A program made the position numbers and the translations under genes. From positions 1 to 32,000 of the forward strand of contig CAZCSM010000011.1 in assembly GCA_964501355.1 (NCBI GenBank): a DNA stretch of 32,000 bases, written 5' to 3'. The notes beneath the pieces are model-generated. The model ran no database searches and was not told the DNA's origin. It saw only the letters and a program-made list of their open reading frames with translations. This DNA comes from an uncultured Candidatus Saccharibacteria bacterium (GTDB lineage: Bacteria > Patescibacteriota > Dojkabacteria > CAZCSM01). Positions 8,200-21,129 of the stretch are shown in pieces. Each line of letters opens with the position of its first letter. Position 1 is the stretch's first letter.

Positions 8200-10416
8200 A
8201 TGAAAATCTACAATCTTAAAATTGCAAAGACTCGACGATTGTTCACGATCAGTATTGCAATATTATCCTGCATCTTTTTTTTCAGTAAAAATTTTCTTGA
8301 AAAGGCCTATGCACTAACAGAATCTTTTTCTCCCGCTGATTTAGTCATAGGTCAACCTGATATGATAAGTGGAACAGCGAATAATGGAGGAATCAGTGCT
8401 TCTAGTTTATCGTGGACCTACTCTGTTTTCAGTTATGGCGAAAATGTATATGTAGCAGATACAATGAACAGTAGAGTTTTAATATATAATGGAACACCAG
8501 GAGAAGATAATTGGGATAATGTAGCTGACTATGTGATAGGTCAACCTGATATGGTAAGTAATACTGGGAATAATGGAGGTGTAAGTGCTAGCAGTTTGTA
8601 TCAATCTTTTTCAGTTGCTACAGATGGAAGAAATGTTTATGTGGCGGACTTTATTAATAACAGAGTTTTAATTTATGATGGAATTCCAGGAGAAGAGGGC
8701 TGGGATAATGTCGCAGATTATGTTATTGGTCAACCTGATATGACCAGTGTTACTGCAAATAACGGGGGAAGAGGTGCTAGCAGTTTATATCGACCAACTT
8801 CGGTTGCCACAGACGGAGAGAGAGTCTATGTTGCAGATAACAATAACAATCGAGTATTGATTTATAATGGAATACCAGGAGAAGTAGGATGGGATAATGT
8901 AGCTGACTATGTGATAGGTCAACCTAATATGACCAGTGGTACTGGAAACAATGGAGGATTAAGTGCCAGTAGTTTATATCAACCAACTTCGGCAACCACA
9001 GATGGAGAGAGAGTTTATGTAGCAGATTATGTTAATAGTCGAGTGTTAATCTATGAGGGAATACCAGGAAAAGAGAGCTGGGATAATGTCGCAGACTATG
9101 TAATAGGTCAACCTGATATGACTAGTGGTACCTCTAATAACGGAGGGGTAAGTGCCAGTAGCTTGTTTTTCCCACGGTCAGTTAACACAGACAGAGAAAA
9201 AGTCTATGTGGTTGATAGCTATAACCATCGAATTTTGATCTACGAGGGGATACCAGGAGAGGTAGATTGGGATAACATCGCAGACTATGTAATAGGACAA
9301 TCTAATATGACAAGTAATACGAAAAACAATGGAGGTGTAAGTGCTAGTAGTTTATCTGAACCAACTTCGGTTACTACAGATGGAAGAAATATATATGTGG
9401 CAGAAAGGCTTAATTATCGTGTACTAATCTATTACATGGGTCCACAAAATATGAGTTTCACTTCAGTTTCTAGCTTAAGCAATAGCTTGACAGGAAACAC
9501 TTTTACTCTTGCAGGACGTGATGCAAAAGAGATGATGATATCTGAAGACAATGCTTTTGACGGAATCCCATGGGAAAGTTTTTCAACTTCAAAACTGTTT
9601 AGTCTTTCATCTGGAGATGGAATAAAGACTGTATATGCTAAGATGAGAGATTATGCTAATTATGAAGGAGAAGTACTATCAGCAACAATTACTGTAGATA
9701 CAACTAAACCAACAGGTACATTTTCAATCAATACAAATTCTACCTACACAAACACACCAGTTGTTACACTCACACTATCAGCAAGTGATAACCTCTCAGG
9801 AGTATCACAAATGATGATTTCAAACACTTCAGTTTTTACAGGAGCAAGTTGGGAAAACTATTCAGCAACTAAACAATGGACACTACCATCGGGAGATGGA
9901 GAGAAGAGCGTATATGTTAAGTTTAAAGATAACGCAGGAAATGAATCATTGGTTGTTAGCGATACTGTTATTCTAAAAACCGCTGCACTTCTAACACTAG
10001 ATCTGACTAATCTAAATTATCAACAAACACAGGAGAGATATACAAGAGCAGAAGGAGAACCGGTGATAGTAAGAGGAACAGCAGAACAGAGTACGGTGGT
10101 AACAATCACAGCATTAACGGAAGAAGGAGTAGTGGTTTACGAGACCCAATTAACAGTAGGAGAAGGTGGTAACTGGGAGATAGACTTAGGAGATGTTTTA
10201 GGAGTAGGAACATACCTAGTACAAATAACAACGACCGATCCGGCAGGGAACATAGCATCGAGTGAGTTTACTTTAGGTGTCGAAGCTGTTATAGAAGAAG
10301 TCGAAACTTTACCACAGACAGGAGAAGGAATTATAATTCCGTTTTTCCTAGGAATCTTCTTATTGTTGAAGCACTTTATGAAAAATAAAATGACTAAGCA
10401 ATATATTTTTCACTAG
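8200..10416 (+). CDS. Sortase-anchored six-bladed NHL-repeat beta-propeller surface protein
   Basis: N-terminal signal/TM. Six 63-aa repeats (ADYVIGQPDMTSGT.NNGG.SASSL..P.SV.TDG..VYVAD..N.RVLIY.GIPGE..WDN, including YNHRILIY). Two repeats of about 110 aa (SGDGxKxVYxK..D.AGNES type). C-terminal LPQTGE + hydrophobic segment + KHFMKNK tail. Confidence 0.85.
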   Translation: MKIYNLKIAKTRRLFTISIAILSCIFFFSKNFLEKAYALTESFSPADLVIGQPDMISGTANNGGISASSLSWTYSVFSYGENVYVADTMNSRVLIYNGTPGEDNWDNVADYVIGQPDMVSNTGNNGGVSASSLYQSFSVATDGRNVYVADFINNRVLIYDGIPGEEGWDNVADYVIGQPDMTSVTANNGGRGASSLYRPTSVATDGERVYVADNNNNRVLIYNGIPGEVGWDNVADYVIGQPNMTSGTGNNGGLSASSLYQPTSATTDGERVYVADYVNSRVLIYEGIPGKESWDNVADYVIGQPDMTSGTSNNGGVSASSLFFPRSVNTDREKVYVVDSYNHRILIYEGIPGEVDWDNIADYVIGQSNMTSNTKNNGGVSASSLSEPTSVTTDGRNIYVAERLNYRVLIYYMGPQNMSFTSVSSLSNSLTGNTFTLAGRDAKEMMISEDNAFDGIPWESFSTSKLFSLSSGDGIKTVYAKMRDYANYEGEVLSATITVDTTKPTGTFSINTNSTYTNTPVVTLTLSASDNLSGVSQMMISNTSVFTGASWENYSATKQWTLPSGDGEKSVYVKFKDNAGNESLVVSDTVILKTAALLTLDLTNLNYQQTQERYTRAEGEPVIVRGTAEQSTVVTITALTEEGVVVYETQLTVGEGGNWEIDLGDVLGVGTYLVQITTTDPAGNIASSEFTLGVEAVIEEVETLPQTGEGIIIPFFLGIFLLLKHFMKNKMTKQYIFH
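8335..9468 (+). repeat. Six tandem 189-bp coding repeats (NHL blades)
   Basis: The unit start GC(T/A)GA(C/T)T(A/T)(T/A)GT(G/A/C/T)ATAGGTCAACCTGATATG recurs at 8335, 8524, 8713, 8902, 9091 and 9280, an exact 189-nt period. Confidence 0.9.
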
Positions 10417-12570: not shown

Positions 12571-12713
12571 TCTTTCTGTTCTAGGCATTTGGTCGTTGGG
12601 GTCTGGGGGGATGTGTGTTTGCACGGGTAAGGATGATTTGTCTTTATCTATCTGCCAACGGAAAACGCCACATCCCCCCAGCGCTTTTGATTCCTTTTGG
12701 CGTCAAAAGGAAT
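12571..12713 (+). repeat. Structured intergenic repeat, diverged copy D
   Basis: Keeps the 5' box GGTCGTTGGGGTCTG and the CTTTTG linker. P1 is CTGGGGGGATGTG (12603-12615)/CACATCCCCCCAG (12669-12681). P2 is ATTCCTTTT (12690-12698)/AAAAGGAAT (12705-12713). Confidence 0.75.
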
Positions 12714-12825
12714 AGAGAAATTTTGTTTGTATTCTATGCATAAACAATTCTCAATATATAGATCCATTCAAAAATAAAGTAATCTCTGTTACAATATCAA
12801 AGACTAAAATAAACCAAACCGCCCA

Positions 12826-13254: not shown

Positions 13255-13391
13255 CCCTTATTATCTGTATTGGGTTGTTGAATCGTCGAAGTCTGAAACA
13301 AGTGATTCCGGTTGCTATTTGCTTTAAGGTCGTGCTTGGAGGGAGTTCACTTGTTTCAGAAATTTTGGTTACTTTTGTTTGCAAAAGTAAC
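13255..13391 (+). repeat. Structured intergenic repeat, copy B
   Basis: 5' box ATCTGTATTGGGTTGTTGAATCGTCGAAGTCTG. P1 is TCTGAAACAAGTGA (13292-13305)/TCACTTGTTTCAGA (13347-13360). P2 is 13368-13377/13382-13391, identical to copy A. Confidence 0.85.
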
Positions 13392-14621: not shown

Positions 14622-14649
14622 TTTTGTCGTTTGACATTTGTCATTTGTC
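14622..14649 (+). repeat. Four tandem heptads (TTTGTC/TTTGAC core)
   Basis: TTTTGTC GTTTGAC ATTTGTC ATTTGTC, then CC. Same motif family as 240-260. Confidence 0.7.
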
Positions 14650-14673
14650 CCTCCGTTTGCTATTCTATATAAA
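14645..14673 (+). promoter_or_regulatory. Candidate promoter of the 14697-15407 gene pair
   Basis: -35 TTGTCC (14645-14650), 17-nt spacer, -10 TATAAA (14668-14673), 24 nt before the ATG. Confidence 0.3.
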
Positions 14674-14696: not shown

Positions 14697-15011
14697 ATGA
14701 AAGACTGGAAACAATTTGCAATAGCATTTTTTACGCTAGCAATAACCTTTATAATTCCTGTTACATTAACTCGAGTAATACAGGAGAATCCTGAAGATGT
14801 TCGAACACAAGCGCAGGAAATCACTGCAAACGCAGCTGCAATTGTTGACACCGGTGTTGAAAATTTGTCAAAGACACCAACCATTAATGTGCCAATTCTA
14901 GGTGAAATGCAAATTGCAACACTAGGACTATACGTTGCTGCCGTGGTATTTCTCATTGTAATGATTGTTGCAGGAACCAAGCTTTTTAAACCAGTTAAGA
15001 AAGTGTTCTAG
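14697..15011 (+). CDS. Small membrane protein (two predicted TM helices), hypothetical
   Basis: Hydrophobic segments FAIAFFTLAITFIIPVTL and LGLYVAAVVFLIVMIVAG. Its stop codon directly abuts the GTG start of the next ORF. Confidence 0.6.
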   Translation: MKDWKQFAIAFFTLAITFIIPVTLTRVIQENPEDVRTQAQEITANAAAIVDTGVENLSKTPTINVPILGEMQIATLGLYVAAVVFLIVMIVAGTKLFKPVKKVF

Positions 15012-19396: not shown

Positions 19397-20338
19397 CTAA
19401 ATCACACTCAACAAAAGCGTAATCGCAAAGAGCGGATCAGTAACGCTAGTTTTAATTTGGAAATCAATTTCCACAAGTTTATCGTAAAGTACCTTGAGTT
19501 TTTCAAAGCTAATCGATTGGCGACTGTTTACGATCTTGCTCACAACAAAAGGGCTGAACTTTAACTTGGATGCAATTGAAGAAGGACTTGTTCCCCTGCT
19601 CTGTTCATATTTAATTAAAATTAGCTGACGAAACTGCCAAACAATTAACCCCCAAATCTGATGAATATCATTCCCCTGACGAATTAATTTTTCTAAATTT
19701 GATATGGCTACATTTTTATTTGCCGTAGCGATAGAGTTTGTTAGTCCCCAGACTTCAACGGCAGCACTTGCCGGAACCGCATCCTCAACATCCTTTACCG
19801 TAATTTTCCAACCTTTTTTATAAAGGCTAAGTTTCTCTATCTCACTACTAATCCTCCACATTTCTTCCCCTACTCTTTCTGCAATCTTTTGAGCAACTGT
19901 AGGAGAAACTTTTTGACCAAGAGATTCAAATTCTTCAATAATCCAATTCTCCAGAGATTTACCTTTTAACTCTGCAAACTCTTCTACCTCAAATTCTTTT
20001 TTAAAAAATTTGTAGAACACAGATCTCTTATCCGCAGCCTTATTTTCCCAGAAGATGAAATCTACCTCTTTTATTCCTGTTAATTTTGAATCCTGAAAAA
20101 ATTCAACAAACCTTTTACTTTCGGAGGTTTCGGAGAAATACTTCACAACAACAAGTTTCTGAGGATTAAACATAGATATTGAATCAATCTCAGATAGCAC
20201 CCTTTCAGCAAGAGCAGAACTTCCGTCTAAATATGTAACAGACGATTCTCCGTGATCTCTCTCAAAAGCAGAAGTAATCTCAGAAAGCCGCTTTCTAGAC
20301 AAATACGCATTAGGACCGTGGATTAAAAGAAGATTCAC
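19397..20338 (-). CDS. holA: DNA polymerase III subunit delta
   Basis: 313 aa with the typical delta layout (LIHGPN..., SMFNPQKLVVV, EIEKLSLY...ITVKDVEDAV, C-terminal helical domain LVEIDFQIKT). GTG start. Confidence 0.75.
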   Translation of the reverse strand: MNLLLIHGPNAYLSRKRLSEITSAFERDHGESSVTYLDGSSALAERVLSEIDSISMFNPQKLVVVKYFSETSESKRFVEFFQDSKLTGIKEVDFIFWENKAADKRSVFYKFFKKEFEVEEFAELKGKSLENWIIEEFESLGQKVSPTVAQKIAERVGEEMWRISSEIEKLSLYKKGWKITVKDVEDAVPASAAVEVWGLTNSIATANKNVAISNLEKLIRQGNDIHQIWGLIVWQFRQLILIKYEQSRGTSPSSIASKLKFSPFVVSKIVNSRQSISFEKLKVLYDKLVEIDFQIKTSVTDPLFAITLLLSVI

Positions 20339-20372: not shown

Positions 20373-20509
20373 CCCCTTTATTATCTATATTTGGTTGTTA
20401 GTCGTTGAGGTCTGGAACAACCTGTTCCGGTAGTTATTTGTATTAGGTTGCTATCTGCTGGAATTAGGTTGTTCCAGAAATTTTGGTTACTTTTGTTTCC
20501 AAAAGTAAC
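20373..20509 (+). repeat. Structured intergenic repeat, copy C
   Basis: P1 is TCTGGAACAACCT (20411-20423)/AGGTTGTTCCAGA (20466-20478). P2 is 20486-20495/20500-20509. It is in + orientation although both flanking genes are on the minus strand. Confidence 0.85.
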
Positions 20510-20526
20510 AGAGATGAATATTTCCA

Positions 20527-21129
20527 TTATACCTTCTCAAATTCCACCACAACCTTATCCTGCATAAAACGAAGCTTAGTCAACTTTCTACTCCCGAAAT
20601 TCTGGGTCTTCATTTGCTCAATCGCTTGGTAAACAGCCTGATCTAATTTATCCGAGATAAAATCTGGAAGTTTAATTGGTCCGACAGAAAGCTTCTCCGG
20701 TTTTGGATAATAAGTTCCCGCTTCAGTTTCTTCCGAAACAAACTGCGAAGAAATATCCAAACCGAAAGGTCCTGCGGAATGGAAATATCCGGTATTGAGA
20801 GCAAAATCTAAATAGAACTCATCTGCTTTAACAGGAAGCCATTTAATATTGGAATTTGTAATAAAGGAAGTTATAAACTCCTCTGCCTCAAATTCAGTAA
20901 GAATCAAGGTTGCAGTGCCGGACTCGTCTAAATTCTTCTCCAGAGTATCAATGCGTTCTTCTAAATCAATCGTAGCCTCCCCAAGCACCTGAGAGTCCGC
21001 TTCTATCTGCGGGCCCTTATACATGAAGTTATCTTTCTGACTATAAATGAAAAGCCCAATTCCTCCGATAAACAAACTTAGGATTAATAATGCTCCACCA
21101 GTTATTAACAAAAAGAATTTTCTGATCAT
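20527..21129 (-). CDS. Membrane-anchored hypothetical protein, translationally coupled to murJ
   Basis: N-terminal TM (FFLLITGGALLILSLFIGGIGLFIY). Its ATG overlaps the murJ TGA (ATGA). Confidence 0.65.
   Translation of the reverse strand: MIRKFFLLITGGALLILSLFIGGIGLFIYSQKDNFMYKGPQIEADSQVLGEATIDLEERIDTLEKNLDESGTATLILTEFEAEEFITSFITNSNIKWLPVKADEFYLDFALNTGYFHSAGPFGLDISSQFVSEETEAGTYYPKPEKLSVGPIKLPDFISDKLDQAVYQAIEQMKTQNFGSRKLTKLRFMQDKVVVEFEKV

Follow-up and report, generated by a model that had tools for sequence, protein, structure and literature searches.

A strand-oriented structured repeat with a 3' module common to several phyla, present in four copies in 32 kb of a Candidatus Saccharibacteria contig

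Four copies of a folded repeat in the window

The window, by which we mean the whole 32-kb stretch of DNA analysed here, carries an AT-rich element of 110-140 nt in several copies. These sit 0.7-10 kb apart, between housekeeping genes. The copy of main concern, copy C, has a minus-strand gene on each side, at 19397-20338 (HolA C-terminal domain) and at 20527-21129 (a 200-aa protein), and is antisense to both.

A covariance model, termed R1 and made from the window copies and nine relatives, was run on the window with filters off. It recovers exactly four copies, all on the + strand, in agreement with a previous sequence-only reading, which claimed four copies pointing one way. The chance probability of four out of four on one strand is 1/8, which is not significant alone. 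Copy C is one of these four same-strand copies of a folded repeat of approximately 110-140 bases; the 3' module that it shares with other phyla, and the pseudoknot of this module, went beyond that reading. The features are:

20373-20509, + strand: copy C, whole element (R1 match 20404-20509, 86.4 bits)
20373-20410, + strand: 5' leader of copy C, CCCCTTTATTATCTATATTTGGTTGTTAGTCGTTGAGG, from alignments
20411-20478, + strand: long hairpin P1/P2 of copy C, with arms at 20411-20433 (5') and 20455-20478 (3')
20478-20480, + strand: X of copy C (AAA), predicted to pair with the loop TTT at 20496-20498 and so to form a pseudoknot
20481-20485, + strand: U-rich linker of copy C, TTTTG, almost unchanged across phyla
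20486-20509, + strand: 3' hairpin S2 of copy C, GTTACTTTTG - TTTC - CAAAAGTAAC
2718-2854, + strand: copy A (R1 match 2749-2854, 87.1 bits)
12573-12713, + strand: fourth copy, diverged, between alaS and ruvX (R1 match 12595-12713, 77.3 bits)
13255-13391, + strand: copy B, between ruvX and yceG/mltG (R1 match 13285-13391, 74.3 bits)

Likeness among the window copies ends exactly at 20509, the foot of S2, with unique sequence beyond. The 29-nt 3' motif has three matches in the window, against 0.00 expected by chance. The leader of copy C ends on its 3' side in a purine run, GAGG, aligned with the GGGG(U) of other subtypes.

Some other features of the window were recorded. A promoter-like site, TTCAAA-17-TACAAT, with an extended -10 and a TG upstream, is found at 12767-12795, between the fourth copy and the start of ruvX. 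It could have restored ruvX expression after the insertion. Another 29-nt motif, TTTGTC.TTTG.C.TTTGTCATTTGTCCC, is present twice on the + strand (234-262 and 14623-14651), both times upstream of + strand ORFs (537-812 and 14697-15011), and may be a common promoter or regulatory site. Finally, six tandem 189-nt (63-aa) repeats span 8335-9477, within a 738-aa ORF (8200-10416) that contains NHL-repeat and bacterial Ig-like domains. Its neighbouring ORFs are very large and of surface type, with PKD, DUF11 and Glyco_hydro_19 domains.

Base pairing, folding strand and conserved structure

The P1 arms are GGGACAACCT / AGGTTGTCCC in copy A and GGAACAACCT (20414-20423) / AGGTTGTTCC (20466-20475) in copy C. 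The compensatory G-to-A and C-to-T double change that had been read between these two copies is indeed there, at 20416 and 20473, and the resulting pair A20416:T20473 is inside the P1/P2 hairpin of copy C. The same is true for the T:G wobble of copy A, which is a T:A pair in copy C (T20413:A20476).

An alignment of copies A, B and C with a consensus fold has 139 columns, with 21 differences between A and C. Six of these are in the 76 paired columns and touch five pairs, all of which still pair, through one double change and four G.U interconversions. The other 15 are in the 63 unpaired columns, the 5' leader among them. Between A and B, 15 pairs differ and 12 of them remain paired, six via double changes. 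The fourth copy, with ATTCCTTTTG/CAAAAGGAAT as S2, CTGGGGGGATGTG/CACATCCCCCCAG as P1, CGC as X and GCG as X', has compensatory changes in P1 as well as in the 3' hairpin.

In terms of folding, copy C reaches -48.8 kcal/mol as RNA (z -7.5), and its reverse complement -36.3. The central hairpins of the four window copies have -37, -27, -37 and -38 kcal/mol on the + strand, compared to -23, -19, -23 and -29 kcal/mol on the - strand, and each window copy contains 3-6 G.U pairs on the + strand. A similar tendency is seen family-wide: 67 of 97 distinct copies (p = 5e-6) and five of seven lineage alignments have their more stable fold on the + strand. Under ssDNA parameters, copy C takes the same fold as under RNA parameters (z -7.7). 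As both sets give one fold, the folding strand is established, and the type of molecule, RNA or ssDNA, is left undecided. The tally of G.U against A.C (2 vs 3 in P1 across genomes, and for the pseudoknot as well) carries no directional signal.

The order of parts from 5' to 3' is a leader with a purine run (GGGG, GAGG or GAAG), P1 around a variable domain, X, UUUUG and S2. The 3' module can be written as X3-UUUUG-GUUACUUUUG-X3'N-CAAAAGUAAC, where S2 is a 10-bp hairpin and bases 1-3 of its tetraloop pair with X. RNAalifold, applied to the four window copies and nine copies from other genomes (10 genomes), recovers both the long-range P1 and S2. It gives P1 a length of 11 bp, with compensatory changes in 10 of the 11 pairs. 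On 35 distinct covariance-model matches, P1 is 95.5% paired and covaries at 10 of 11 pairs, a level reached by none of 500 shuffles. The claim of a conserved, strand-specific structure is thus supported by compensatory changes both within the window and across genomes.

For the pairing of X with X', all three pairs covary in 79 distinct modules, with 32, 36 and 25 double changes. In these modules 78.5% of cells are paired, a value attained in 0 of 500 shuffles; sliding the partners leaves the whole structure 38-57% paired. Examples of X:X' are AAC:GTT, GAC:GTC, GCC:GGC, GGC:GCC, CAC:GTG, ATC:GAT, CAG:CTG and AAA:TTT. The four outer pairs of S2 also covary in diverged copies (ATTCC/GGAAT, GTCAC/GTGAT, GCCAC/GTGGC, TCCAC/GTGGA). 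The inner part of S2, ACUUUUG/CAAAAGU, and the UUUUG linker are fixed, in diverged copies too. The family sample was chosen by an exact match to a 29-mer, so the conservation of S2 is overstated.

From these pairings we infer that X:X' and S2 would form an H-type pseudoknot. Its U-rich linker would plausibly run parallel to the A strand of the U-A helix, in U.A-U triples, which would account for a helix of invariant sequence. The pseudoknot loops are very short and, with a 1-nt L3, sterically tight. In the Parabacteroides distasonis variant the complementarity of X and X' extends to 7 nt, which fits alternative structures better than a pseudoknot.

Distribution, insertion sites and genomic context

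The family was scanned with the 29-mer TTTTGGTTACTTTTG-NNNN-CAAAAGTAAC, as an exact match and with one genome per species. It is found at no fewer than 100 genomic loci, that is, at least 100, in many phyla and often in several copies or contigs per genome. The 3' end is almost identical in at least four phyla. Among Patescibacteria, the carriers include Saccharimonadales, Falkowbacteria and others. Firmicutes are represented by Oscillospiraceae, Faecalibacterium and Eubacteriales, and Bacteroidota by Aphodosoma, Paludibacteraceae, Sphingobacterium, Mucilaginibacter and Pseudopedobacter. Other carriers include Gastranaerophilales/Melainabacteria, Gemmatimonadales, Glassbacteria, and alpha- and gamma-proteobacterial MAGs. 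Carriers among isolates include Sphingobacterium and Parabacteroides distasonis.

The sequence 5' of the 29-mer is structured and differs by lineage. The length of the unit ranges from around 60 nt (the Oscillospiraceae core) to around 330 nt (Gemmatimonadales), and in several lineages P1 closes a domain of 60-230 nt.

Some lineage-specific features accompany the module. Many lineages have a small GC-rich hairpin, P4, right after it, 3' of GTAAC (e.g. loci L018, L037, L040, L042 and L059). The P4 loops are GGA, GCA, GAGA or GGCGA, followed by an A-rich run. P4 covaries between copies (TCGCCC..GGGCGA vs TCGTCC..GGACGA), and the window subtype is without it. Two Oscillospiraceae loci have tandem short S2-like hairpins, GTGACTTTTG..CAAAAGTCAC and GTACTTTTG..CAAAAGTAC, with no upstream domain. 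Runs of S2-like hairpins are present at L082 2342-2466, in opposite orientation to the full copy, and at L074 2196-2225 and 6459-6485. Three Gastranaerophilales loci (L011, L038, L098) contain "solo" fragments, (A)nAAAGTAAC-CCCGTCCGGAGGACATTAAA, flanking full copies. These fragments consist of the last bases of the module and the following hairpin, with the remainder of the element missing. Two loci (L013, L089) have duplicated units in tandem. In Melainabacteria, the GGGTTGAAAGG before the module resembles what we take to be the end of the Cas12k repeat; it is absent from other lineages. A group II intron domain V/VI match (55.5 bits) at L020 5932-6006, on the - strand in Sphingobacterium suaedae, lies about 430 nt from a copy and is probably coincidental.

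Searches of other collections returned little. A metagenome scan for the window subtype gave two loci, both of other subtypes. Viral contigs have no element match, and BLAST of copy C against phages has none. Apart from P. distasonis, plasmid BLAST gave chance-level matches (Listeria, a Ligilactobacillus MobQ plasmid). With Rfam 15 at the gathering threshold, there are no matches in the window and none at the element in 19 loci. Permissive Rfam searches (E up to 5 or 10; the window and loci, 39 in all) gave scattered chance matches, none of them recurring across lineages. In the literature, searches by DNA or RNA sequence strings returned unrelated primers and the like, and searches by topic returned no description. 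The family is widespread, strongly backed by covariation and, judging by Rfam 15 and the literature that can be searched, undescribed.

Three relatives share the alaS-ruvX-yceG gene order, with RuvX identities of 74, 62 and 57%. In each of them the stop codon of ruvX overlaps the start codon of yceG (ATGA); the window has 196 nt between the two genes, and copy B lies in this gap. Between alaS and ruvX, the relatives have 6-105 nt and no element, and the window has 266 nt that include the fourth copy. At the junction of copy C, between the 200-aa gene and holA, relatives whose adjacent protein is 80% and 66% identical have other sequence and no element. A copy of its own is found in one relative, L111, downstream of yceG (S2 TCCACTTTTG/CAAAAGTGGA, X:X' CAG:CTG), a site without a copy in the window. 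Copy density also differs, with 4 per 32 kb in the window vs 1 per approximately 45 kb in the contigs of the relatives. Considering the empty orthologous junctions together with the L111 copy elsewhere, the window copies are gains, and the element is or was mobile. The "insertion" of the sequence-only reading is therefore borne out by empty sites in syntenic relatives. The insertion of copy B splits the translationally coupled ruvX and yceG, which indicates that streamlined genomes such as those of Patescibacteria tolerate insertions.

A different repeat, TTCTTCGAGCG...GTCGAGAAGT, is present at the copy C junction in window relatives (L113 4085-4113 and L115 10715-10745).

As for the ends of the element, there are no terminal inverted repeats. 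The two ends, CCCCTT(T)ATTATC... and ...CAAAAGTAAC, are not complementary, and all inverted repeats (P1, S2) are internal. No shared direct repeat was seen flanking the four copies, with a fuzzy left boundary that leaves room for a duplication of 2-4 nt. The bases 5' of the left ends (ACTGA, ACATT, TTCTCT) are not conserved.

Orientation relative to genes was scored for 60 family members. The flanking genes are (+,+) in 23, (-,-) in 16, (+,-) in 16 and (-,+) in 5. These mixed classes mean that orientation is uncoupled from genes, as had been claimed from copy C, and that the element avoids divergent regions, where promoters lie. Where two copies are neighbours on one locus, they share an orientation in 11 of 13 cases, some of these pairs being segmental duplications. 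GC skew in the window simply tracks gene strand. For the orientation of the copies, transcription of their own, a DNA-level function linked to the replication strand and strand-biased insertion, as put forward by the sequence-only reading, are candidate explanations. An upstream scan found no sigma-70-like promoter consistently shared by the copies.

There is no recurrent neighbour protein for approximately 105 copies, in all-vs-all clustering of ORFs within 3 kb and over whole 8-kb loci. The ORF clusters near copies are only generic families (ABC ATPases, LeuRS, ClpB-like). Pfam annotation of the window ORFs gave no transposase, TnpB, reverse transcriptase or integrase. Bacteroidales copies are found 12-50 nt upstream of the start codons of unrelated genes, among them those for a LolD-like ATPase, UvrA and an M23 peptidase. 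In P. distasonis, all three copies are antisense in one duplicated cassette, DUF3987-DUF4248-HU-[element]-smalltalk-amidase:

L104 1312-1545, L116 2065-2297 and L117 2501-2725: P. distasonis copies, between an HU-family gene and a "smalltalk" peptide/amidase

RefSeq has a 40-aa hypothetical protein overlapping part of the P. distasonis element, which is probably spurious.

Possible nature of the element and its meaning

The explanation we favour, at not quite an even chance, is that copy C belongs to a structured element of copy-and-insert type, non-autonomous and active in single-stranded form, most probably as + strand RNA. The 3' module would be its functional core, with a 5' domain specific to each lineage. 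This module might serve for recognition, or for self-processing or 3'-end formation, either for the RNA itself or for a trans-acting factor that is widely conserved. The UUUU linker would form the U.A-U triples from within the major groove of the U-A stem. The copies have been inserted where the genes of housekeeping operons lie close together, and they point either way relative to genes, so that orientation reflects the element and not its neighbours. Counting against this reading, the copies share no consistent upstream promoter, ssDNA parameters predict an identical fold, and no mobility mechanism was found, that is, no terminal inverted repeats, clear target-site duplication or conserved target.

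An element acting as single-stranded DNA is an unlikely alternative, yet the one that survives best. Here it would derive from a peel-and-paste transposon (IS200/IS605-like or REP/RAYT-like) or another HUH-mobilised one and be non-autonomous itself, with hairpins in replication-fork ssDNA recognised in trans and a strand bias linked to replication. The identical ssDNA fold (z -7.7) agrees with this, as do the insertion polymorphism, the single strand of the four window copies and the co-orientation of 11 of 13 adjacent pairs. A one-end hairpin and strand-specific folding, with neither terminal inverted repeats nor target duplication, are also in its favour, and the invariant hairpin sequence suits recognition by a sequence-specific protein. 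However, no Y1/HUH transposase or tnpB is present in the window or near any of the approximately 105 copies, the conserved hairpin is at one end only (S2, 3'), and the left-end flanks are unconserved. The geometry of guide and cleavage site in IS608 and ISDra2 differs from the loop-to-flank pairing of the element, and, to our knowledge, IS200/IS605 ends are not conserved across phyla; both points count against a ssDNA element. PATEs, with similar subterminal hairpins at both ends, a conserved 4-5-nt target 5' of the left end and tnpA or tnpB near some copies, are not matched either: neither the hairpin pair nor the target is seen, and neither gene was found within 3 kb, in whole 8-kb loci or among the window ORFs.

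It is improbable that the element is a mobile intrinsic terminator or a 3'-UTR stabiliser. In such a case + strand transcription would end at the GC-rich P1 and the UUUUGGUUACUUUUG after it, 3' exonucleases would be kept off the upstream mRNA by the terminal structure, and the element would have spread by tolerated insertions at gene ends. P1 with its U-rich tract does have the form of a terminator, a GC-rich hairpin followed by (X)UUUUGGUUACUUUUG, and a terminator scan flags part of the P1 3' arm and the T-rich run in copy C. Oscillospiraceae copies such as GCGGGGGAATCGCAACCCCCGCGG TTTTGG show this form very clearly. Moreover, three of the four window copies come directly after co-oriented genes, members are more common between convergent (16) than divergent (5) genes, and the promoter-like site at 12767-12795 follows the fourth copy and precedes ruvX. 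Against this, the upstream gene is on the opposite strand for copy C and for 21 of the 60 scorable members, so that the family does not keep to sites behind co-oriented genes. A terminator has no need for an invariant 25-nt sequence, for a hairpin downstream of the U-tract or for a covarying pseudoknot. Nor does it fit with a P1 that closes a 60-230-nt domain in several lineages, or with Bacteroidales copies that precede start codons by 12-50 nt. The poor fit to a simple terminator that was claimed at the outset is upheld by the antisense copy C, the 21 of 60 members opposite to their upstream gene, the invariant downstream hairpin and the covarying pseudoknot.

Very improbable is a stand-alone or relic guide-RNA scaffold of TnpB/Cas12 type (omega RNA), with the 3' flank as guide and a nuclease or repressor encoded elsewhere. 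In the ISDra2 omega RNA, the 116-nt scaffold is built of stems, a 3-bp pseudoknot and a triple helix, and a tetraloop hairpin immediately precedes the 3' guide (PMC10097598; PMC11844463). The architecture of the element resembles that of this RNA, and likeness between window copies stops at the hairpin foot, with unique sequence next. In general, scaffolds of this type (omega RNA/reRNA of IS200/IS605; PMC10097598) are like the element in size (around 110-140 nt), stems, 3-bp pseudoknot, triple helix (only proposed for the element) and a 3'-end tetraloop hairpin with the element boundary directly after it. The differences are the missing nuclease gene and Rfam match, another pseudoknot topology, and the extra P4 hairpin of many lineages. 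No tnpB, iscB or cas12 is near any copy, so the element does not adjoin the end of a nuclease gene as omega RNAs do. Rfam gives no match to the IS605-orfB, HEARO or RAGATH families, even with E up to 5. In the element the loop pairs with the 5' flank, whereas the ISDra2 pseudoknot joins the far 5' region to the bases that follow stem 4. Other lineages have the conserved P4 hairpin after the module instead of a variable guide, and an invariant 25-nt core across phyla is unexpected for partners of the fast-evolving TnpB.

Other candidates were rejected. A specific riboswitch or cis-regulatory leader does not agree with a downstream gene that is co-oriented in only 28 of 60 members, or with the unrelated downstream genes of Bacteroidales. 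For an integron attC, the ends do not fit RYYYAAC...GTTRRRY (R''/R'), and the window has neither a cassette array nor an integrase. A tRNA or tmRNA was also rejected. Within the module, both an outward sigma-70 promoter (TTGGTT-17-TAACAT) and the Bacteroidetes TAnnTTTG -7 box misfit in spacing and adjoining motifs. The junction motif UGUUYGAG...CGAGUU is no clean fit to a kink-turn or a T-loop.

Compared to small interspersed repeats (REP/BIME, ERIC/IRU, bcr1, RUP, Correia and other MITEs), the element is alike in being about 100-150 nt, multi-copy, intergenic, strongly folding and non-coding. Insertion polymorphism between related genomes and frequent co-transcription with neighbours are further likenesses. 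Unlike them, it is without terminal inverted repeats, evident target duplication or a GTAG-type REP head, and has a covarying pseudoknot and a 25-29-nt core identical in several phyla. We know of no such repeat family that is not restricted to one genus or family. REP/BIME in particular are 20-40-nt GC-rich palindromes with a conserved GTAG head, in alternating orientation and with a RAYT gene in the genome; the element is 110-140 nt, AT-rich in the window and co-oriented. The full set of defining features of a MITE, REP, PATE, omega RNA, attC, riboswitch or known ribozyme is not present in the element.

Returning to a structured element that acts most probably as RNA, two groups of known RNAs are of interest. 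Triple-helix pseudoknots (telomerase RNA, SAM-II and preQ1-II riboswitches, ENE/MALAT1) likewise have a U-rich strand parallel to the A strand of a U-A helix, in an H-type fold, which for the element is predicted. The invariance of all three strands fits U.A-U triples, and the place at the 3' end recalls triple helices that protect 3' ends. Unlike them, the element has very short loops, is known here from sequence alone, and is a bacterial repeat that occurs in multiple copies before no particular gene. Self-cleaving ribozymes (twister, pistol, hatchet, hammerhead) share with it a minimal size of about 60 nt, an invariant core, variable stems, optional large insertions and a pseudoknot. They are also sporadic across phyla and multi-copy, in unrelated contexts on either strand. 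The element differs in that it matches no ribozyme covariance model in Rfam 15 and that part of its invariant sequence is in a helix.

More tentatively, and with a chance we rate as clearly lower than even, the element may be an uncatalogued, ancient, cross-phylum class of small structured RNA. Its invariant core, X-UUUUG-hairpin with the loop containing X', would then be a pseudoknot with a triple helix, serving either as a new self-processing (catalytic) motif or as a handle for a universally conserved host factor.

If this is true, a folded element of approximately 60-330 nt would be common to Patescibacteria, Melainabacteria, Firmicutes, Bacteroidota, Gemmatimonadota and Proteobacteria, and a protein-less element could proliferate even in the small genomes of Patescibacteria. 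An invariant core of some 25 bases and a covarying pseudoknot, not in Rfam and with no linked gene, form a pattern that normally points to the core of a catalytic RNA or to a handle used by a highly conserved cellular machine. Few bacterial RNA motifs are widespread, and either outcome would add one to them. Cultivable carriers are identified, namely Sphingobacterium suaedae, Sphingobacterium endophyticum and Parabacteroides distasonis, which makes the question directly testable.
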